A DNA stretch of 64,000 nucleotides, from assembly GCA_011051655.1 (NCBI GenBank), contig DRKS01000053.1, positions 11,790 to 75,789 of the forward strand, in the 5' to 3' direction. Origin of the DNA: Sedimenticola sp. (GTDB lineage Bacteria; Pseudomonadota; Gammaproteobacteria; Chromatiales; Chromatiaceae). The notes under the pieces were generated by a model. It made no database searches. It was given only the letters and a program-made list of their open reading frames with translations, and had not been told where the DNA came from. Made by a program: the position numbers and the translations under genes. The first letter of the stretch is position 1, and each line of letters starts with the position of its first letter. Below are positions 7,569 through 62,294 of this stretch, one piece after another.

Positions 7569-8759
7569 ATGAAAAACCCTAAATCTTTACGCCTTGTCGC
7601 CCTGGCTTTTCTGTTCTATCTCCCCCTGTCGCTGGCGCTCCTCCCCGCCGTCTGCGCCGCGGAGAGCAGCAAGTTCCGCGATGAATTCATCACCAACTAC
7701 AAGACCTTCCAGTTCAAGGCCCAGGAGAAGCTGATCAAGAAGAGCGGGGACATCATGGAGGATGAGATCTTCAGCCTGATCATCGATGCCATGGACGATG
7801 ATCTGACCGTCGGCCAAAGGCTGTTCCTGCTGGATGCCGCCAGCGCCATGGCCCATGGCTATGAGCACTACCACGGCGGCGGCAAGAAATTCATCAAAAA
7901 GATCGACAAGCTGATCAAGAAGGAACTGGAGAAGGAGAAGGCGCGCATGGCCGAGCTTCTGAAGTGGGAGGGGGAGGAACGCTTCATCGGCAACTTCGTC
8001 ATGGACGCCCATGCGGAAGAGATGGAGAAGGAGGGGCTGGCGCCGGTCATCTATCCCCATTGGATCCACCGCATCTGGTACGAGTGCTCGGTGTGCCACC
8101 AGGAGGTGTTCGTGATGAAGCGCTGGCGCAACGAGATCTCCCGGGAGAAGATCCTGGCCGGGCAGCAGTGCGGCGCCTGCCACAATGGCGACATCGCCTT
8201 CGGCGCCGATGAAAAGGACAAGTGCGGGCTCTGCCATGTGGCCGGCAAGCCCGAGGGCAAGAGACTGCACGATCTGGATCACATCGACCACAAGAGGATT
8301 GCGGAAGTGGCCACCAGGGTGGGGGCGGAATGGAATGCGGACAAGCTGCCGGACGGGCGTCTTCCCGTCGACCGCTATGGCTTTATCGATTGGCTGGCCT
8401 TGAAGGAGAATGGGATCTTCAAGCCCATCGAATCCCTGCACGGCGATTACAAGCCGGTGATACGGGACAACCAGATTCTCTTCATTTCCAAGGGCAAGCT
8501 GGAGAACGTCCTGTTCAGCCACAACGTCCATTCGAGCTGGATAAGATGCACCTCCTGCCATCCGGCGGTTTTCGGCGAGGGCCTGGACAACAAGGTCAAG
8601 ATGGTCAGGATGTCAAAGGGAGAGAACTGTGGCTATTGCCACGGCAAGGTTTCCTTCACCTTTGCGGACTGCAAGCGCTGTCACAGCCAGGAAAAAGGGA
8701 CGGAGGTCGAAGGTGCGCTGGTGCATGTGGGCCAGCCGAAGAAGCGGAAGAAGAAATAG
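7569..8759 (+). CDS. Periplasmic hexaheme c-type cytochrome (two c7-like triheme modules behind a helical N-domain)
   Basis: Signal peptide, then six CxxCH motifs (CSVCH, CGACH, CGLCH, CTSCH, CGYCH, CKRCH). They form two blocks of the pattern H-x3-H...CxxCH...CxxCHxG...CxxCH. Starts 9 nt after the nqrF stop. Confidence 0.85.
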   Translation: MKNPKSLRLVALAFLFYLPLSLALLPAVCAAESSKFRDEFITNYKTFQFKAQEKLIKKSGDIMEDEIFSLIIDAMDDDLTVGQRLFLLDAASAMAHGYEHYHGGGKKFIKKIDKLIKKELEKEKARMAELLKWEGEERFIGNFVMDAHAEEMEKEGLAPVIYPHWIHRIWYECSVCHQEVFVMKRWRNEISREKILAGQQCGACHNGDIAFGADEKDKCGLCHVAGKPEGKRLHDLDHIDHKRIAEVATRVGAEWNADKLPDGRLPVDRYGFIDWLALKENGIFKPIESLHGDYKPVIRDNQILFISKGKLENVLFSHNVHSSWIRCTSCHPAVFGEGLDNKVKMVRMSKGENCGYCHGKVSFTFADCKRCHSQEKGTEVEGALVHVGQPKKRKKK

Positions 8760-8766
8760 ATAGGGC

Positions 8767-8884
8767 GGTTGACGGTTTACAGTTTACGGTTGACAGTAAA
8801 AAACAAAACCAATAATTGGACGAAAAACCTTTAACCGTCAACCGTCAACCGTCAACTGTCAACTGTAAACCGCAAACCGTGAAT
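8767..8884. repeat. Heptanucleotide tandem arrays arranged as inverted arms around an A-rich spacer
   Basis: Left arm is GGTTGAC GGTTTAC AGTTTAC GGTTGAC (8767..8797). Right arm is CGTCAAC x3, TGTCAAC, TGTAAAC, CGCAAAC (8835..8880). The arms are reverse complements of each other. Confidence 0.9.
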
Positions 8885-10492
8885 CCCCACCCCAGGCAGC
8901 CGGCTCGGAATCAGCACCAATCATTGATTTCGGAAGGCGGTGATGAGACTCCGGGTGACAGATTTCTCAGGCGCTTTTTCTTCAATCCCCTGGGCCGCGC
9001 CTTTCTTTATGTGGAGGCCTGGTTCAACCTGGCCTTCGGCACGGCGCTGAACCCCTTCTACCACCTGGGGTCTTTGGTCTTCTTCTTCCTGTGGATCGTG
9101 CTGGTCAGCGGCATCTATCTCTATATATTTTTCGATACCAGCATCGTCGGCAGCTATCAGTCCATCGAGTCTTTGACCCACGGGCAGTGGTATCTTGGCG
9201 GGGTCATGCGCAGCCTTCACCGTTATGCCTCGGATGCCGCGGTGGTGGTGACGGTCCTGCATATTCTGCGCGAGTTCGCGCTGGGGCGCTATCGGGGGTT
9301 CCGCTGGTTTTCCTGGTTCACCGGTGTGCCGCCCCTGTGGGTGATGGTCCTGCTCGGCGTCACCGGCTACTGGCTGGTGTGGGACCAGGTGGCCCAGTAC
9401 GTGGCCGTCAGCTCCGCCCGGCTGATGGATGCGCTGCCGCTGCTGTCCAATTCCATGACGCGCAATTTCCTGAGCGGCAAGCTGAGCGACCGCTTCTTCA
9501 CCCTCATGACCCTTATCCATCTGGTGGGCGGCCCCATCACCCTGGTGTTCGCCCTGTGGATCCATGTCAAAAGGCTGTCCAACGTGGATCCCATGGGACC
9601 GCGGGGGCTGGCGATCGGCAGCCTCCTGGCGCTGATCGTGCTGTCGCTGGTCAAGCCGGCGCTCAGCCTCGGCCCGGCGGATATGAGCAAGGTGCCCGTG
9701 GTGCTGAACATCGACTGGTTCTATCTCAACGCCTTTCCCCTGCTCAACCATTGGAGCGAGGGGGCGGTCTGGGTCCTGATCCTCGGCCTCAGCCTGCTGC
9801 TGGCGTTGCTGCCCTGGCTGCCGCCCAGGCGCATGCCGGCGGCCGCCCGGGTGCGGCTGGATCACTGCAACGGCTGCGGCCAGTGTTTCCTGGATTGTCC
9901 CTTCGACGCCATATCCATGCGCAAACGCAGCGACGGCGCGCACTGGGCCACTGAGGCTGTGGTCAACCCCGACCTGTGCGCCTCCTGCGGGATCTGTGTG
10001 GGCTCCTGCCCCTCCTCCAATCCCTTCCGCCGGGCCGATGAGCGGCTCACCACCGGCATCGACATGCCGCAGGTTCCGATCCACGAGACCCACGCGGCCG
10101 CCAAGGCGGCCCTCTCCTCCCTAAAGGGCGAAACCAGGCTGCTGATATTCGGCTGCAACCATGGGGTGAACCTGGCGGAGATCCATGATCCCGGCATCGC
10201 CACCATGACATTTTCCTGCATCGGCATGCTGCCGGCGGGTTTCATCGACTATGCCCTGAAAAACGGCGCCGACGGGGTGATGATCTCGGGCTGCCGCTCC
10301 TCGGACTGTTATTACCGCTTCGGCAACCGCTGGATGGAGCAGCGCCTGAGCGGTGGGCGCATGCCCCATCTGAGAAAAAACACGGACCGCAGTCATCTCC
10401 ATATCTGCTGGGCCGCCGGGCCGGACAAGGATCATTTCCTCCGGGAGCTCAAGGCCTTTCGCCGGCGCCTGTCGGATGAGAGGCAGCGCTGA
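8816..10492 (+). CDS. Fusion protein: cytochrome b (b/b6 N-terminal type, diheme) + 2x[4Fe-4S] ferredoxin + MvhD/FlpD-like domain
   Basis: Multi-TM N-terminal part has His pairs HRYASDAAVVVTVLH and HLVGGPITLVFALWIH. Next come CNGCGQCFLDCP and CASCGICVGSCP. The C-terminus is LLIFGCNHG...GADGVMISGCRSSDCYYRFGNRW, an MvhD-like signature. The true start is probably GTG 8879 or TTG 8924, because the first ~35 codons of the longest ORF translate the heptamer array. Confidence 0.8.
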   Translation: MDEKPLTVNRQPSTVNCKPQTVNPHPRQPARNQHQSLISEGGDETPGDRFLRRFFFNPLGRAFLYVEAWFNLAFGTALNPFYHLGSLVFFFLWIVLVSGIYLYIFFDTSIVGSYQSIESLTHGQWYLGGVMRSLHRYASDAAVVVTVLHILREFALGRYRGFRWFSWFTGVPPLWVMVLLGVTGYWLVWDQVAQYVAVSSARLMDALPLLSNSMTRNFLSGKLSDRFFTLMTLIHLVGGPITLVFALWIHVKRLSNVDPMGPRGLAIGSLLALIVLSLVKPALSLGPADMSKVPVVLNIDWFYLNAFPLLNHWSEGAVWVLILGLSLLLALLPWLPPRRMPAAARVRLDHCNGCGQCFLDCPFDAISMRKRSDGAHWATEAVVNPDLCASCGICVGSCPSSNPFRRADERLTTGIDMPQVPIHETHAAAKAALSSLKGETRLLIFGCNHGVNLAEIHDPGIATMTFSCIGMLPAGFIDYALKNGADGVMISGCRSSDCYYRFGNRWMEQRLSGGRMPHLRKNTDRSHLHICWAAGPDKDHFLRELKAFRRRLSDERQR

Positions 10493-11717: not shown

Positions 11718-11790
11718 CGAATCTAAAGGCCGTAAACTGGGGATGTCAGACAGAAATTAGCGGCATGAATAAAGAAGCCGGTTATCATCC

Positions 11791-11846
11791 TGACAACTGA
11801 CAACTGACAACTGACAACTGACAACTGACAACTGACAACTGTCAGA
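11791..11846. repeat. (TGACAAC)7 perfect tandem heptamer array ending in a short palindrome CTGACAACTGTCAG
   Basis: Read directly. Seven identical units span 11791..11839. The metF stop codon (11842..11844, minus strand) lies in the terminal palindrome. Confidence 0.95.
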
Positions 11847-12711
11847 TAAGCTCCGCCCCCGGCAGCCCCAGGTTCTTCCAGATGCCCAGCACCGGCTCCG
11901 CCTGGTTCATGGAGTAGAAGTGCAGACCCGGCGCCCCTTGCTCCAGCAGCCGCTGGCACATTTCGCTGATGACATCCAGCCCCAGGGCGCGGATGCTCTC
12001 CAGGTCGTCTTCGAGATCCTCCAGGCGCCGGCGCAGCCAGCGGGGGATCTCGGCCCCGCAGCCGTCGGAGAAGCGGGCCAGCTGGGTGAAATTGGTAATG
12101 GGCATGATGCCGGGCATGATGGGGATGTCGAGCCCCAGTTTTTCACAGCTCTCCACGAAGCGGAGGTAGGCGTCCGCGTTGAAGAAATACTGGGTGATGG
12201 CGCCATTGGCGCCGGCCTCGACCTTGCGCTTGAAGTTCGCCAGGTCCGCCCGGGCGCTGGGGGCCTGGGGGTGGAACTCGGGATAGGCGGCGACCTCGAG
12301 ATAGAAGTGGTCGCCGGTCTCGGCGCGGATGAATTCCACCAGTTCGTTGGCGTAGCGGAAGTCCCCGGTTTCGGCGGCCCCCATGCCCGAGGGGAGATCC
12401 CCGCGCAGGGCGACGATGCGGTCGATGCCGTGGCTGCGATAGAGCTCCAGCAGCTCCAGTATCTCGTCCCTGGAGGAGCCGATGCAGGAGAGGTGCGGCG
12501 CCGCATTCACCCCGGCCTCCTGGAACTCCAGCACGGTCCCGATGGTGCGGTCCCGGGTGGTGCCGCCGGCCCCGTAGGTGACCGAGATATAGAGGGGGTT
12601 GAGCCGCATCAGCCGGTCCCGGACCAGGCGCAGTTTCTCGGCGCCCTGTTCTGTCTTGGGAGGAAAGACCTCGAAGCTGTAGCTGGGTTGGTATTTTTTC
12701 TGGGATTCCAT
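11842..12711 (-). CDS. metF: 5,10-methylenetetrahydrofolate reductase
   Basis: Contains SFEVFPPKT, ISVTYGAGG, HLSCIG and ITQYFFN motifs. Start set at MESQKK (12711); the longest ORF begins at 12732. Confidence 0.93.
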   Translation of the reverse strand: MESQKKYQPSYSFEVFPPKTEQGAEKLRLVRDRLMRLNPLYISVTYGAGGTTRDRTIGTVLEFQEAGVNAAPHLSCIGSSRDEILELLELYRSHGIDRIVALRGDLPSGMGAAETGDFRYANELVEFIRAETGDHFYLEVAAYPEFHPQAPSARADLANFKRKVEAGANGAITQYFFNADAYLRFVESCEKLGLDIPIMPGIMPITNFTQLARFSDGCGAEIPRWLRRRLEDLEDDLESIRALGLDVISEMCQRLLEQGAPGLHFYSMNQAEPVLGIWKNLGLPGAELI

Positions 12712-12881: not shown

Positions 12882-14303
<1,422 letters not shown>

Positions 14304-14322
14304 GGTTTTTACTCCTTGAAAG

Positions 14323-14396
14323 AACCGAGCGCCGTTGTCAGTGAAACCGCGGTACCGAGCCTGGCAGGGGAGGCCCCGTTGCAGCGCTCCTCAGTA
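14323..14396 (-). promoter_or_regulatory. SAH riboswitch in the ahcY 5' leader
   Basis: The minus strand reads CUGAGGAGCGCUGCAACGGGGCCUCCCCUGCCAGGCUCGGUACCGCGGUUUCACUGACAACGGCGCUCGG. It contains the conserved GAGGAGCGCUGC, GCCAGGCUCGG and CAACGGCGCUC blocks of the SAH element as I remember the consensus. It sits just upstream of the AAGGAG SD (14312..14317) and the ahcY ATG. Confidence 0.8.
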
Positions 14397-14430
14397 CGCG
14401 GGTTAGGTGAAGTTTAGCCAAGTATTTGTT

Positions 14431-15829: not shown

Positions 15830-16381
15830 ATGGTGTCATTGCAAACCCCTGTCTGTGAATTCGGCAAGCCCGCGGTGGATTTTTCATTGCCCGGCGTCGA
15901 CGGCAAGACCTGGACCCTGGAGCAGTGCCGGGGGGATAACGGCCTGCTGGTGATGTTCATCTGCAACCACTGCCCCTATGTAAAGGCCATCCGGGAGCGC
16001 ATTGTGCGGGATGCCCGGGAGCTGCTGGATCACGGCGTCAAGAGCGTCGCCATTATGTCCAACGATGCCGCCGGGTATCCGGAAGACTCCTTCGACAACA
16101 TGCGGCGGGTGGCGCGGCGGTTCCATTTCCCCTTCCCCTATCTGCTGGACGAGACCCAGGAAGTGGCCAGGGCCTACGGGGCGGTCTGTACCCCGGACTT
16201 CTTTGGCTACAACGGGGACCTGGAGCTGCAATACCGGGGCCGCCTGGACGAGAGCCGCAAGGAGACCGCGCCTGAAGGGGTTCGCCGGGACCTGTTCGAG
16301 GCCATGAAGCAGATCGCCGCCACGGGGGAGGGGCCGCGGGAGCAGATTCCCAGCATAGGCTGTTCCATAAAGTGGCGTTGA
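15830..16381 (+). CDS. Thioredoxin-fold protein, AhpC/TSA (thiol-disulfide oxidoreductase) family
   Basis: FSLPGVDGKTW...LLVMFICNHCPYV CxxC-type motif. Start set at MVSLQTP. Confidence 0.8.
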   Translation: MVSLQTPVCEFGKPAVDFSLPGVDGKTWTLEQCRGDNGLLVMFICNHCPYVKAIRERIVRDARELLDHGVKSVAIMSNDAAGYPEDSFDNMRRVARRFHFPFPYLLDETQEVARAYGAVCTPDFFGYNGDLELQYRGRLDESRKETAPEGVRRDLFEAMKQIAATGEGPREQIPSIGCSIKWR

Positions 16382-16474
16382 TATCAGTTATCAGTTATCA
16401 GTTTACGGTTGACAGTATCTTGATGCATTTCTTCATGTTATTGGTTTGCCGCTTTTGACCGTCAACTATCAACG
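16382..16474. repeat. Heptamer arrays as inverted arms
   Basis: Left arm (ATCAGTT)3 TACGGTT GACAGT at 16382..16415. Right arm CGTCAAC TATCAAC at 16460..16474. Confidence 0.85.
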
Positions 16475-16727
16475 GGCGATGGCATTGGCGGTTGTACCAA
16501 AAGCGCGGTTGGGCGAAAATAACCGATTTCCCGAGGGGGGATCACCGTCTCTCCCCGCCGTGGTGGGCCTCAAAAACATCCAAAACAATCATCCCGGAAT
16601 ATGGTGACGGGGGGATCTGTAAGCCCTTCGCCGGGGCGTTCTGGCCTGAATTCATTCCGGGCCGGCGAAGCAATGAGATTCCGCCCGGATCCATATCGAA
16701 CCTTTCGGCTTTGACCAGGAGAGACGC

Positions 16728-31742: not shown

Positions 31743-32510
31743 ATGCTGTTGATTCCCGCAATCGATTTGAAAGACGGCCAATGCGTGCGCCTGCGCCAGG
31801 GGCGCATGGAGGACGATACCGTGTTCTCGGACGATCCGGTGGAGATGGCCGGCCGCTGGGTGGACGCCGGCGCCCGCCGCCTGCACCTGGTGGATCTGAA
31901 CGGGGCCTTCGCCGGCGAGCCGGTGAATGGGGAGGTGATCGCCGCCATCGCCGCCAGATACCCCGGCCTGCCCCTCCAGGTGGGCGGCGGCATCCGGGAC
32001 GAGGCGACCATCGAGGCCTACCTCGACGCGGGGGTGGACTATGTCATCATCGGCACCCAGGCGGTGAAGGAGCCCGCCTTCGTGGCCCGGGCCTGCGCCG
32101 CCTTCCCCGGCCAGATCATTGTCGGCCTGGACGCCAGAGACGGCCTGGTCGCCATCGACGGCTGGGCCACGGTGACGGACCATCTGGTCATGGATCTGGC
32201 CCGGCGGTTCGAACAGGACGGGATAAGCGCCATCGTCTACACCGACATCGGCCGCGACGGCATGCTCAGCGGGCCCAACGTGGAGGCCACCAGGGCCCTG
32301 GCCCTGACGGTGGATACCCCCATCATCGCCTCCGGCGGCATCACCGACATCGACGATATCCGGGCCCTGTGCGAGGTGGCCTCCGCAGGCGTCATGGGGG
32401 CCATCACCGGGCGCGCCATCTACGAAGGCACCCTGGATTTTGCCCAGGGGCAGCGCCTGGCGGATGCAAGCTGCAACCAAGAGCCCGGCAAAATGCCCCC
32501 CCGCAACTGA
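31743..32510 (+). CDS. hisA: ProFAR isomerase
   Basis: [23 protein letters not shown] and GGGIR motifs. The C-terminal codons and the stop lie at the start of a heptamer array. Confidence 0.95.
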
Positions 32511-32560
32511 AAACTGAAAACTGAAAACTGACAACTGACAACTGACAACCAATAACTGAT
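32503..32560. repeat. Unidirectional heptamer array
   Basis: GCAACTG (AAAACTG)3 (ACAACTG)2 ACAACCA ATAACTG. It fills the whole hisA-hisF spacer, and the hisA TGA (32508..32510) is inside it. Confidence 0.93.
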
Positions 32561-59788: not shown

Positions 59789-61165
59789 TTATTGCTCTTT
59801 GGGCGTCACCGCCCGGGTTTCGCCCACGAACATGATGGCGGGAAAGTTGTGCTTCAGCTCCTTGCTGTAGAAATTGCGCATGATCACGCCGTCGGGGAAG
59901 CGGATGCGGGTGCCTGCCGGCAGGTCCGTCACCGGCGCCGCCAGCCAGGCCGACAGGCCGTCATCCCGCTTCACCACCAGATAGCTGTAGCCGGAGGTCC
60001 TGATGTGCCGGATGATCACCGCCTCGTTGGGCAGCGTTCTCCGCCGCGCCTCGCGCCGGGACAGCTCCGCCCGCTGCGCCGCGGCCTCCGCGGGCGTGGC
60101 CCAATAGCCGATATCGCCCTTTTCGTTGAAAGTGGCATATTCCACGCTGCGCTTGTAACCGTCCAGGTTGGTGCCGCCGATGATGTAGAGACGGTCGTTC
60201 ACGGCCAGGGCATTGAACCCCTCGCGCCTGGACGGCAGGGCGGTGGTGGGTTCCCATTTGGAGAGGCCGCCATCCGCGTTTATCCGGCTCTTTTCGATGC
60301 TGTCCAGGTAGGCCGCCCCGTCGAGGCCGCCCAGGGCATAGAGGTAGCCGCCGTGCAGGGCGGTGGCCAGGCCGTAGCGCCCCGTGCGCAGGGGTTCGGC
60401 GGTTCTCCAGGGCTCCAGCCAGCCCTCCGCGTCCTCCCGGCTCCATTCGATATCGGGGATGCCGACGCCCCTCTCCTTGTCGTGGCCGCCGATCACATAG
60501 ACCCGGCCGCCCACGGCCTTTACCCCCTGGATGTAGCGCGGCAGGTTCATGCTGTCCAGCAGCACCTCCCACTCACCCAGGGTGCCGTCCGGCCAGATCT
60601 CGGCGCGTTCCACGGAATCCAGCAGGATGCCGCCGAAGCCGCCGAAGACGTAGATATGGTTGCCGAGGACCGCCAGCTTGGTGCAGCGGCGCTTGGTGTT
60701 CAGCCTGGATTGCTCCAGCGACCACTCACCCAGGGTGCCATCGGGCCGGATCTCGGCGCGTTCCACGGAATCCAGCAGGATCTTGCCGTAGGCCCCCCTG
60801 CCGCCCCCCACGGCATAGACATGGTTCCCATGCCGCGCCACGGAGAAGAAACCGCGCTCGACGTTGAGGGCCGGGCCGGGCCGCCACTGCGTCAACGAGC
60901 CATCCGGATTGATCCTGGCGTATTCGCCGGAGCGCAGGAAATCCTTGCCGTCCACCCCGCCGATGACGTGGATGACCCCGCCGGTTTCGATGGCGGCCGC
61001 CCCGCTCCTGGGGGTCAGCATGGACGGCCCCTCGCGCCAGCCGGGCGTCCACACCAGGTCTGCCCCGGCCCCGCCCGCCTTCGAAGACGCCGCCGCGCCC
61101 TGATTGCAGACGCCAATCAAAACGGCCAGGAAAAGGAGGGGGAGAATACGGGGAGGGGAGGTCAT
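59789..61165 (-). CDS. Secreted Kelch-repeat beta-propeller protein with an unassigned C-terminal domain
   Basis: Signal peptide, then six or more blades of the hxVxGG...W type (IHVIGG, VYAVGG, IYVFGG, VYVIGG, LYALGG, LYIIGG). The last ~100 aa belong to no family I recognise. Confidence 0.85.
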   Translation of the reverse strand: MTSPPRILPLLFLAVLIGVCNQGAAASSKAGGAGADLVWTPGWREGPSMLTPRSGAAAIETGGVIHVIGGVDGKDFLRSGEYARINPDGSLTQWRPGPALNVERGFFSVARHGNHVYAVGGGRGAYGKILLDSVERAEIRPDGTLGEWSLEQSRLNTKRRCTKLAVLGNHIYVFGGFGGILLDSVERAEIWPDGTLGEWEVLLDSMNLPRYIQGVKAVGGRVYVIGGHDKERGVGIPDIEWSREDAEGWLEPWRTAEPLRTGRYGLATALHGGYLYALGGLDGAAYLDSIEKSRINADGGLSKWEPTTALPSRREGFNALAVNDRLYIIGGTNLDGYKRSVEYATFNEKGDIGYWATPAEAAAQRAELSRREARRRTLPNEAVIIRHIRTSGYSYLVVKRDDGLSAWLAAPVTDLPAGTRIRFPDGVIMRNFYSKELKHNFPAIMFVGETRAVTPKEQ

Positions 61166-61170
61166 GGGAG

Positions 61171-61328
61171 CGTTGACGGTTTGCGGTTAACGGTTGACGG
61201 TTGTTTAATTCTAGCTGGTCGGCGGCCAGAAACCATGCGGAACATCATGCCAGGCGCGATCTCCCCCCAACCATTAACTGATAACTGACAACTGATAACT
61301 GATAACTGTCAACTGATAACCGTAAACT
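61171..61328. repeat. Largest heptamer locus: inverted arms flanking a ~65-bp spacer in a divergent promoter region
   Basis: Left arm is GTTGACG GTTTGCG GTTAACG GTTGACG GTTGTTT (61171..61208). Right arm is TAACTGA TAACTGA CAACTGA TAACTGA TAACTGT CAACTGA TAACCGT AAACT (61274..61328). Confidence 0.93.
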
Positions 61329-61334
61329 ATTCTT

Positions 61335-62294
61335 ATGTCCAATCAACCTTCTGTCCGCGTCTATGCCGGCGAAGAACTCGCCCGCTACGGCTTCGGCGAC
61401 GGCCATCCCTTTGGCCCGGACCGGTTCGACGCCTTCTGGCGCGAGTTCACCCGGCGGGGGCTCAACCACCGGGTCCAGGTCGCCGGCCCGGTGCGGGCCA
61501 GCCGCGACGCCATCGAGCGCTTTCATACCGCCAACTATGTCTCCAGGGTCAAGGCCATGTCGCAGACGGGCGGCGGTTACCTGGACCAGGGCGATACCCC
61601 CGCCTTTGCCGGCGCCTACGAGGCCGCCGCCTTTGTCGTCGGCAGCGTGCTGGATGCGCTGGAGGGGATCCCGGGGGGAGAGTGCAGGCGCGCCTTTGTC
61701 CCCATCGCCGGGCTGCACCATGCGCGCCGTGATTCGGCGGCCGGCTTCTGCGTGTTCAACGATTGCGGCATCGCCATCGAGACCCTGCGCGCCCGCCATG
61801 GCGTACGGCGGGTGGCCTACGTCGACATCGACGCCCACCATGGCGATGGCGTCTTCTACGCCTTCGAGCAGGATCCCGATCTGATCTTCGCCGACCTGCA
61901 CGAAGACGGCCGCTTTCTCTATCCGGGCACGGGCTTGGCCTGCGAGACCGGCAAGGGCCCGGCCGCCGGAACCAAGCTCAATATCCCCCTGCCGCCCGGC
62001 GCGGATGACCGGGCTTTTCTCCGGGCCTGGCCCAGGGTGGAGGCCTTTATCGCCGAGGCGCAGCCGGAGTTCATCATCCTGCAATGCGGGGCCGACAGCA
62101 TCGGCGGCGACCCGCTCACCCATCTCCAATACAGCCCCGAGGCCCACGCCCATGCGGCGGCGTCGCTGGCCGCTATCGCCGATGCCGCCTGTGGCGGCCG
62201 GCTGCTGGCCGTGGGCGGGGGCGGCTACAACCGGGACAATCTGGCCCGTGCCTGGACGGCGGTCGTCGAGGCGATGATCCCCACGGGCGAGTAG
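61335..62294 (+). CDS. Histone deacetylase-family protein (AcuC/acetylpolyamine amidohydrolase-like)
   Basis: GLHHARRDSAAGFCVFND, DIDAHHGDG and GGGGYN motifs. Confidence 0.9.
   Translation: MSNQPSVRVYAGEELARYGFGDGHPFGPDRFDAFWREFTRRGLNHRVQVAGPVRASRDAIERFHTANYVSRVKAMSQTGGGYLDQGDTPAFAGAYEAAAFVVGSVLDALEGIPGGECRRAFVPIAGLHHARRDSAAGFCVFNDCGIAIETLRARHGVRRVAYVDIDAHHGDGVFYAFEQDPDLIFADLHEDGRFLYPGTGLACETGKGPAAGTKLNIPLPPGADDRAFLRAWPRVEAFIAEAQPEFIILQCGADSIGGDPLTHLQYSPEAHAHAAASLAAIADAACGGRLLAVGGGGYNRDNLARAWTAVVEAMIPTGE

Follow-up and report, generated by a model that had tools for sequence, protein, structure and literature searches.

In a 64,000-nucleotide stretch of Sedimenticola sp. (assembly GCA_011051655.1, contig DRKS01000053.1, positions 11,790 to 75,789; C53:11790-75789), hereafter the window, five intergenic loci carry tandem arrays of seven-nucleotide units, among them the locus at 61171-61328 with which this analysis began. 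The window belongs to a draft genome of 3.12 Mb (103 contigs, 61.6% GC). Its arrays belong to the known class of TAACTGA-type heptamer direct repeats (MacGregor 2015, PMC4679880), because their units, tandem layout, intergenic placement and adjacent starts without a Shine-Dalgarno (SD) sequence all match; the link to the repeats of large sulfur bacteria, drawn in the original prediction, is correct. Throughout the genome, arrays of opposite orientation follow one fixed order, a reverse arm, a spacer and a forward arm. Since the same layout brackets genes of the S23p family, the window arrays are probably arms of hairpin cassettes of the intervening sequence (IVS) type, made of a hypervariable TAACTGA-type heptamer family.

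Abundance and units of the heptamer arrays

Tandem Repeats Finder, together with reading of the sequence, recovered period-7 arrays at all five loci for which they had been reported (8768-8797, 8833-8880, 11790-11841 with 7.4 perfect copies, 16382-16403, 32505-32549, 61172-61203 and 61275-61328 with 6.6 copies). Blocks of opposite orientation form three pairs, 8768/8833, 16382/16456 and 61172/61275, across spacers of ~35, ~45 and ~71 nt, respectively. A genome-wide census returned ~85 period-7 arrays summing to 4.3 kb, against at most 1.4 kb for every other period from 4 to 12, and the pattern AACTGANAACTGANAACTGA had 161 genome matches against 0 for the same pattern read backwards. The abundance of period-7 arrays in this genome is far beyond chance. 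Two unit families with a common CTRA core were distinguished, namely family A, NAAC[T/C]G[A/T] (CAACTGA 127, TAACTGA 79, AAACTGA 50 and CAACCGT 22 units), and family B, TAANNGC (TAACAGC 45, TAATCGC 26 and TAACCGC 25 units). The longest arrays comprise 21 units, and arms extend up to 144 nt. This census agrees with the earlier claim of a single repeat family with the listed unit variants. The concern that the arrays might be assembly artefacts is answered by their presence in four other independent metagenome assemblies, some of them from hydrothermal vents. A few period-7 arrays are built from other units (AGGTTAA/TTAAAGG, AGTGCCG and TGCCTTT; G000 C90:25140-25164, C28:5713-5730, C101:11099-11120, C47:5985-6018 and C13:23427-23487); these do not fit family A or B cleanly, and some have inverted partners of their own.

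Beyond this genome, a scan for runs of five or more units returned at least 120 stretches from Acidobacteriota, Planctomycetota, Verrucomicrobiota, Chloroflexota, Cyanobacteria, Bacteroidota, Desulfobacterota, Parabeggiatoa, Thiocystis and others; the distribution of TAACTGA-type arrays is much wider than the 2015 report described. Among the matches listed, hosts of NAACTGA units include Thiocystis, Acidobacteriaceae and Planctomycetota, and Nostocales, Microcystis and Microcoleus are rich in NAACTGA arrays. Within the window's own class, arrays occurred in 8 of 401 sampled genomes, and more than 100 hits were found in two of the 401, this genome and G034. The presence of such a unit in a high-GC genome had been called unusual; this holds for the massive expansion, rare in the class, but not for the unit itself, given its occurrence in Thiocystis, Acidobacteriaceae and Planctomycetota.

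Polarity and gene boundaries

An array is termed forward when it is oriented so that its unit reads AAC..., the forward strand carrying CTGA or CTAA. Placement statistics rely on our own codon-likelihood gene caller with dynamic programming, which yielded 2683 genes and recovered the his operon correctly. Coding sequences are overlapped by at least 14 nt in only 4 of 84 arrays, the rest being intergenic. The forward 3' end lies a median of 9 nt from a gene boundary, compared with 70 nt for the 5' end (64/82 arrays, p = 3e-7). This boundary is the start codon of a same-strand gene in 49/82 arrays and the stop codon of an opposite-strand gene in 33/82 (~40%); the CTGA-bearing strand of each array thus runs toward the adjacent gene boundary, start or stop alike.

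A more sensitive unit scan delimited 81 array-bearing intergenic regions, of which 31 contain both orientations and 50 a solo array. All 31 two-orientation regions read (NTCAGTT)n-spacer-(AACTGAN)n, with no forward-to-reverse and no mixed arrangement, and the inverted-arm layout first described for three window loci is therefore a rule across the genome. In other phyla, 120 loci among the matches listed included 26 reverse-to-forward pairs (gaps 5-152 nt, median 60) against 3 forward-to-reverse pairs. Such a strict polarity rule appears to be unreported before. Co-directional, convergent and divergent regions are used approximately in proportion to their abundance. Eleven array-bearing regions lie between convergent genes and hence lack any start codon, and 6/81 are divergent against a background of 12.5%, which does not bear out the special link to divergent promoters suggested by the position of the 61171 locus. 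Among array-adjacent starts, an SD core was present in 4/36 and absent from 32/36, against 30% presence genome-wide. This genome-wide share (GGAG, GAGG or AGGA within 20 nt upstream; ~30% of predicted starts against 14.5% of random windows) seems low in itself and may partly stem from start-prediction errors.

The sub-types of the arms co-vary within a region (cosine 0.62 versus 0.29 for shuffled partners, p = 2e-4), which indicates common origin or selection for pairing. An all-against-all BLAST of the spacers found three related pairs only, the spacers being otherwise mostly unrelated. A mobile palindrome of the miniature inverted-repeat transposable element (MITE) or repetitive extragenic palindromic (REP) type was rejected, as the copies have no homologous internal sequence in this comparison. 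Two spacer relationships deserve description. G000 C46:35655-35706 and C61:47042-47093 have the same 49-nt spacer (98% identical) between arm pairs, in opposite orientation relative to the flanking genes, and each joins a family-A arm with a family-B arm. At the contig ends G000 C91:1-345 and C95:36387-36633, the same family-B arm pair and spacer recur, with a 24-nt segment between ~22-nt inverted repeats in opposite orientation in the two contigs; the flipped segment may reflect an invertible hairpin loop, a difference between strains or an inversion introduced by the assembler.

S23p genes between heptamer arms

S23p (PF05635/TIGR02436) is a four-helix-bundle, Avd-like protein whose open reading frame (ORF) is found in the loop of the 23S rRNA IVS. 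The genome contains two PF05635 hits only, each enclosed by a reverse and a forward arm (Table 1). The closest solved relative of the intact protein is Xanthomonas XCC0516 (PDB 2gsc). In its cassette, the reverse arm contains the TAG stop of the upstream host gene, the first forward units provide the TGA at which the S23p ORF stops, and 7 nt separate the end of the forward arm from the next ATG. An internally deleted copy on the same contig retains the leader and two ORF pieces (47 nt and 46 nt) between short arms, and is a decay intermediate toward an ORF-less arm pair. All three S23p loci of the genome, one intact, one a pseudogene and one deleted, are thus enclosed by arm pairs.

The association recurs elsewhere. 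In G034 and G007, arrays abut an S23p gene, and in G007 they are the only NAACTGA arrays of the genome. A period-7 array lies within 150 nt of the gene at 18 of 31 S23p loci in 15 other genomes, and at 42 of 80 in an independent metagenome scan. Around metagenomic S23p genes, the 23 kb of gene-proximal sequence contain 52 period-7 arrays and the 127 kb of distal flank only 4, and the control periods 5, 6, 8, 9 and 10 gave 0-1 arrays. Polarity relative to the gene strand is pronounced, with TYAG favoured in the upstream arm (16 versus 3) and CTRA in the downstream arm (21 versus 0; p = 1.5e-8), and the downstream arm often supplies the stop codon of the gene. The arm units vary by locus (AGCCGTC/GACGGCT, TAGCTCT/AGAGCTA), yet the arms of each locus remain complementary. 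A search of the available literature library found no paper that connects S23p with heptamer arrays spread over a genome, and the bracketing of S23p genes by arrays specifically of period 7, seen across phyla, appears not to have been described previously. The five window loci contain neither S23p nor relics of it, and a sensitive hidden Markov model search of the other spacers likewise recovered no S23p relics.

PADLOC returned no defence family matching S23p. A reverse transcriptase was considered as a partner for an Avd-like protein and discarded, since the only one in the genome is an unrelated Cas6-RT-Cas1 fusion. That fusion (978 aa; G000 C31:17845-20781; L252 1846-4782, minus strand) stands beside a RAMP-family protein, forming a type III CRISPR adaptation module that has no link to S23p or the arrays.

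Variation between strains and RNA properties

The array at the hisA-hisF junction has 8 units in the window and in one vent metagenome contig, 8 units with one substitution in a second contig, and 12 units in a third, with HisF 100% identical in all of them. Unit-number polymorphism, proposed earlier as a possibility, is thus confirmed between strains, and such hypervariability appears to be new. Two other assemblies show the unit variants of 61275-61328 in a different order, with no change in the flanks or the left arm (61172-61203, identical in a second assembly). Repeat number that varies between close strains, a hallmark of contingency simple sequence repeats, was found at hisA-hisF, and an altered unit order at 61275-61328; the array tracts sit in leaders or trailers, and promoter/terminator scans recognised no promoter. 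In family-level relatives, the hisA-hisF junction measures 0-30 nt and contains no array, which makes the array of the window a recent, lineage-specific addition. A run of C just before the hisA stop (window 32495-32503; L155 ~9940) has 7 C in the window and 6 C in ERZ27262676; the difference alters the C-terminus (255 versus 257 aa) and determines which TGA of the array serves as the stop.

The two strands of an array differ markedly as RNA. Forward family-A arrays have a mean minimum free energy (MFE) of -0.4 kcal/mol, with 48 of 54 near 0, whereas the reverse reading is GU-rich and self-folding (mean -5.1 kcal/mol; p = 3e-8 versus forward). Forward arrays contain stop codons in all three frames and no ATG, GTG or TTG; the reverse reading is free of stops and can contain TTG. 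Two further ideas on the role of the units were dropped, namely pairing with 16S rRNA helix 45 (CGGUUG), which is structurally unlikely, and reverse arms serving as TTGACA -35 boxes, because the 7-nt phase does not place a -10 element.

Arrays of the window

The arms, spacer and solo arrays of the window are collected in Table 1 together with the S23p loci.

Table 1. Coordinates of heptamer arrays in the window and of S23p loci elsewhere in the genome
Feature	Position	Strand	Description
Left arm, 61171 locus	61172..61203	-	minus-strand reading CAACCGT CAACCGT TAACCGC AAACCGT CAAC
Spacer, 61171 locus	61204..61274	.	GC-rich, unique; no homology to other spacers
Right arm, 61171 locus	61275..61328	+	TAACTGA TAACTGA CAACTGA TAACTGA TAACTGT CAACTGA TAACCGT AAAC
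Reverse arm	8768..8797	-	directly 3' of the stop (8757-8759) of gene 7569-8759(+)
Forward arm	8833..8880	+	AACCGTC x3, AACTGTC, AACTGTA, AACCGCA, AACCG; upstream of gene ~8924/8943-10492(+)
Perfect (CTGACAA)x7.4 array	11790..11841	+	3' end abuts the TGA stop (11844-11842) of gene 11842-12711(-)
Reverse arm	16382..16410	-	TATCAGT x3, TTACGGT, TGACAG; begins at the stop of gene 15830-16381(+)
Short forward arm	16456..16474	+	GACCGTCAACTATCAAC; weak pairing with 16382-16410
Forward array	32504..32559	+	fills the hisA-hisF junction; 8 units
Intact S23p	C84:16807-17121		122 aa; PF05635; TIGR02436 E = 1e-38
S23p pseudogene	C13:40803-41105		one in-frame TGA
Internally deleted S23p copy	C84:13345-13598		~3.4 kb from the intact C84 cassette; ORF fragment C84:13433-13543

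At the 61171 locus, the 3' end of the left arm lies 6 nt ahead of the ATG (61165) of a Kelch-repeat gene, 59789-61165(-), for which our start call and independent public calls (L158 8455-9831) agree. The 3' end of the right arm lies ~6 nt ahead of the ATG (61335) of a histone-deacetylase-family gene, 61335-62294(+). Pfam labels uphold the earlier naming of the flanking genes as Kelch, FHA, PhoR and histone-deacetylase family. An SD core was sought at both starts and is absent from each. The spacer presumably holds the divergent promoters of the two flanking genes; a search of it for a sigma-70-like site recognised none. The arms differ in sub-type, CCGT on the left versus CTGA on the right, and as DNA the segment 61166-61334 folds no better than shuffled sequences (z = -1.0), so that the cruciform or long hairpin proposed for this locus finds no support. 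Read as plus-strand RNA, the two arms can be joined by G·U pairs (z = -3.1). Rather than a cruciform, the best interpretation of the inverted layout is a pair of independent 5' leaders belonging to divergent genes; the two arms would lie on separate transcripts, and each would serve only the gene that it precedes, as a leader.

The best hairpin in the window is formed by the arms at 8768-8797 and 8833-8880, both of the CCGT/CTGT sub-type. The RNA fold of 8760-8890 reaches -45.2 kcal/mol (z = -5.9), making the RNA structure that had been among the suggested roles plausible at 8768-8880. Inverted repeats with tandem heptamers, as in IVS stems, are accordingly strong at 8760-8890 and weak at 16376-16478 and, as DNA, at 61166-61334, the 16376-16478 fold being no better than shuffles (z = -1.1). 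On the mRNA of gene 11842-12711(-), the array at 11790-11841 reads (GUUGUCA)n, a GU-rich and self-folding tract (-20.6 kcal/mol, z = -5.1). In the his operon, the first unit of 32504-32559 supplies the TGA at which hisA stops, the array ends 4 nt before the hisF ATG (32564), and its MFE as RNA is 0 kcal/mol. An Rfam scan of the window gave no match to any array, its sole match being an S-adenosylhomocysteine (SAH) riboswitch at 14320-14398(-) (RF01057, 60.9 bits). The riboswitch lies upstream of a 473-aa gene, 12882-14303(-), and the gene downstream of the latter is 11842-12711(-), whose stop adjoins the (TGACAAC)7 array.

A proposed cassette origin and its alternatives

If the window arrays are cassette arms, as we consider probable, array regions without an S23p trace would represent ORF-less pairs or solo arms, and slippage-prone arms would account for the gain and loss of units. 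Where both arms lie on one transcript, they would form a long, register-tolerant stem that RNase III might cut. This cleavage step is proposed because of the precedents of the Coxiella IVS and the Haemophilus hmw heptamer leader, and we regard it as possible but doubtful. Cleavage would leave the upstream mRNA with a protective, GU-rich, self-folding 3' tail and the downstream mRNA with an open, SD-less leader. The opposite polarity would place a structured, stop-free, TTG-capable tract before genes, leaving the reverse-to-forward order as the only one harmless to its neighbours, and we infer that forward-to-reverse pairs are never seen in this genome for this reason. Solo arms and arms in divergent regions would act as leaders or trailers only.

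In its broadest form, which we offer tentatively and hold to be rather less than probable, the proposal extends to intergenic heptamer arrays of the TAACTGA and short tandemly repeated repetitive (STRR) class across bacteria, which might be arms of widespread S23p hairpin cassettes, that is, free-living 23S IVSs. S23p, a pentameric, Avd-like nucleic-acid binder, would be the trans factor that recognises or propagates CTRA-core arrays, ORF-less arrays would be its non-autonomous derivatives, and changes in repeat number would be linked to the expression of flanking genes through RNase III processing of the stem.

Several observations weigh against a cassette origin. No S23p trace was found in 78 of 81 array-bearing regions, and with spacers that are mostly unrelated, descent from cassettes is shown for one decay intermediate only. 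Arrays and cassettes could share a mechanism without shared ancestry, and about half of the S23p loci elsewhere have no array. Slippage within an array cannot alone explain why arms abut gene boundaries. At the 61171 locus, the hairpin mechanism cannot apply, given the poor complementarity of the arms and their location in divergent leaders. Finally, the gene calls behind the placement statistics are home-made, although they match public calls at the two loci checked.

Among the alternatives, a role as translational leader elements, following MacGregor, ranks first, although we consider it unlikely. Single-stranded (AACUGAN)n would then offer a platform for ribosomal protein S1, a cold-shock protein or a similar RNA binder in place of an SD sequence, and the inverted layout would be incidental. 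The 49/82 arrays that point at a start codon (median ~10 nt), the 48/54 unstructured forward RNAs, the SD core at just 4/36 adjacent starts against 30% of all genes, the fit of both 61171 arms and the same pattern in BOGUAY, with 147/170 arrays toward starts, all agree with such a role. It leaves unexplained, however, the S23p association, the 33/82 arrays that face the stop codon of an opposite-strand gene, the 11 regions between convergent genes that offer no start codon, the co-variation of arm sub-types within a region and a copy number that varies freely between strains.

The two remaining alternatives seem improbable. Action at the DNA level, through a cruciform or protein binding at promoters, with phase variation of flanking genes by unit number, was among the roles proposed in the original prediction. 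The inverted arms are indeed real, unit number and order do differ between strains, and in Nostoc reporters in E. coli, deletion of a heptamer array altered the promoter read-out (bioRxiv 10.1101/2022.06.06.494920). Yet the DNA fold at 61166-61334 does not exceed that of shuffles (z = -1.0), its spacer yielded no sigma-70-like site, divergent regions are not enriched (6/81 versus 12.5%) and 50/81 regions are solo; moreover, the arrays occupy the stretch from the presumed promoter to the start, or follow a stop, and do not separate -35 from -10 elements, and unit changes spare the start-proximal sequence. Equally improbable in our judgement is that the arrays are functionless slippage microsatellites, arising independently at AACTGA-like seeds and surviving in the harmless orientation, with S23p nearby through hitch-hiking in permissive sites. 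Hypervariability, the patchy distribution (8/401 class genomes), the absence of bias by intergenic-region type, the seed-like hisA stop inside the first unit and the mutually unrelated spacers would all be expected of such tracts; a CTRA-core heptamer in at least 8 phyla, the absence of other periods next to S23p and the matching sub-types of arms in one region would not. In addition, convergent regions obey the polarity just as strictly, and a filter based on translation should have no effect there.

Catalogues of tandem heptamers in cyanobacteria go back to about 1990. For those of cyanobacteria, sulfur bacteria and Bacteroidota, no origin or function has been established so far, and S23p (PF05635), despite a solved structure, has no known role outside the Avd proteins of diversity-generating retroelements (DGRs). 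The polarity rule (31/31), the period-7 association with S23p (52 versus 4) and the decay intermediate tie these two puzzles together, and the tie turns both into hypotheses that can be tested at the bench. For genome annotation, the arrays imply that starts beside forward arrays are SD-less, that arrays may supply stops, and that reverse arrays create long spurious ORFs.

Relation to known repeat systems

The nearest known system is that of the TAACTGA direct repeats described in marine Beggiatoaceae, Thiocystis violascens, Cyanobacteria and Bacteroidetes (MacGregor 2015, PMC4679880). Most of these are forward repeats placed a few nt ahead of SD-less starts; the paper did not settle their function but named ribosomal protein S1, cold-shock proteins and CsrA as candidate binders. 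The arrays studied here have in common with them the unit and its one-base variants, the tandem and intergenic arrangement, a forward end a few nt before SD-less starts, stops in the three forward frames, a patchy phylogeny and strain indels in 7-nt steps. The two sets also differ in several respects. In BOGUAY (Guaymas Basin 'Maribeggiatoa'), 147/170 arrays run toward starts and 12/170 toward stops, whereas 40% of the arrays here point at stops; the arrays here reach 21 units, against 2-6 in BOGUAY, coexist with a second unit family (TAANNGC), and form 31 strictly ordered inverted-arm regions, against one inverted repeat in BOGUAY. The 2015 paper makes no mention of S23p or IVSs. It reported co-distribution of the repeats with XisH/XisI (MacGregor 2015, PMC4679880). 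In our data, a profile search with the XisH model only gave no match, its control being likewise silent.

Cyanobacterial STRR heptamers, reportedly described by Mazel and colleagues (Mazel et al., 1990) in heterocystous cyanobacteria, are said to be intergenic, with many families per genome. They share with the present arrays the intergenic tandem heptamers and a function that is likewise unexplained; STRR units such as CCCCAGT differ from the units found here. REP sequences, bacterial interspersed mosaic elements (BIMEs) and MITEs are also intergenic, hairpin-capable, multicopy and often located just after stops. Unlike these elements, the arrays here have no conserved internal sequence and no fixed length, and their arms are tandem heptamers. 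Target-site duplications were not noticed at the arrays, although no search was aimed at them.

Two systems provide experimental precedents for the proposed stem processing. In H. influenzae, the (ATCTTTC)n hairpin in the 5' untranslated region of hmw1A is cut by RNase III, and this processing affects expression and is needed for repeat-number change (Rapun-Araiz 2025, PMC12721329). The gammaproteobacterial host and the position of a heptamer array in a leader as one arm of a hairpin, transcribed in the case of hmw1A, are common to both systems. In contrast to the arrays here, hmw1A is a single locus with another unit and a G-rich, non-repeat partner arm; it has a defined phenotype (adhesin level), and neither a genome-wide family nor S23p is involved. 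The IVS of Coxiella burnetii carries an S23p ORF in its loop and 2-3 strain-variable copies of the heptamer GACAGAT at the 5' side of a 28-bp stem, where RNase III cuts at the first repeat (Warrier 2016, PMC4990558); S23p IVSs also occur in Leptospira and Xanthomonas, as cited in the same paper. Like the 23S rRNA IVS, the cassettes here hold a PF05635 ORF in a loop between terminal inverted repeats, with strain-variable tandem heptamers in the stem region and decay of the ORF by deletion. RNase III cutting at the first stem repeat is a feature of the IVS that the cassettes here may share. Unlike the 23S rRNA IVS, they lie between protein-coding genes and never in helix 25 or 45 of 23S rRNA, their arms are long, pure arrays (up to 144 nt), and most copies are ORF-less, many of them solo.

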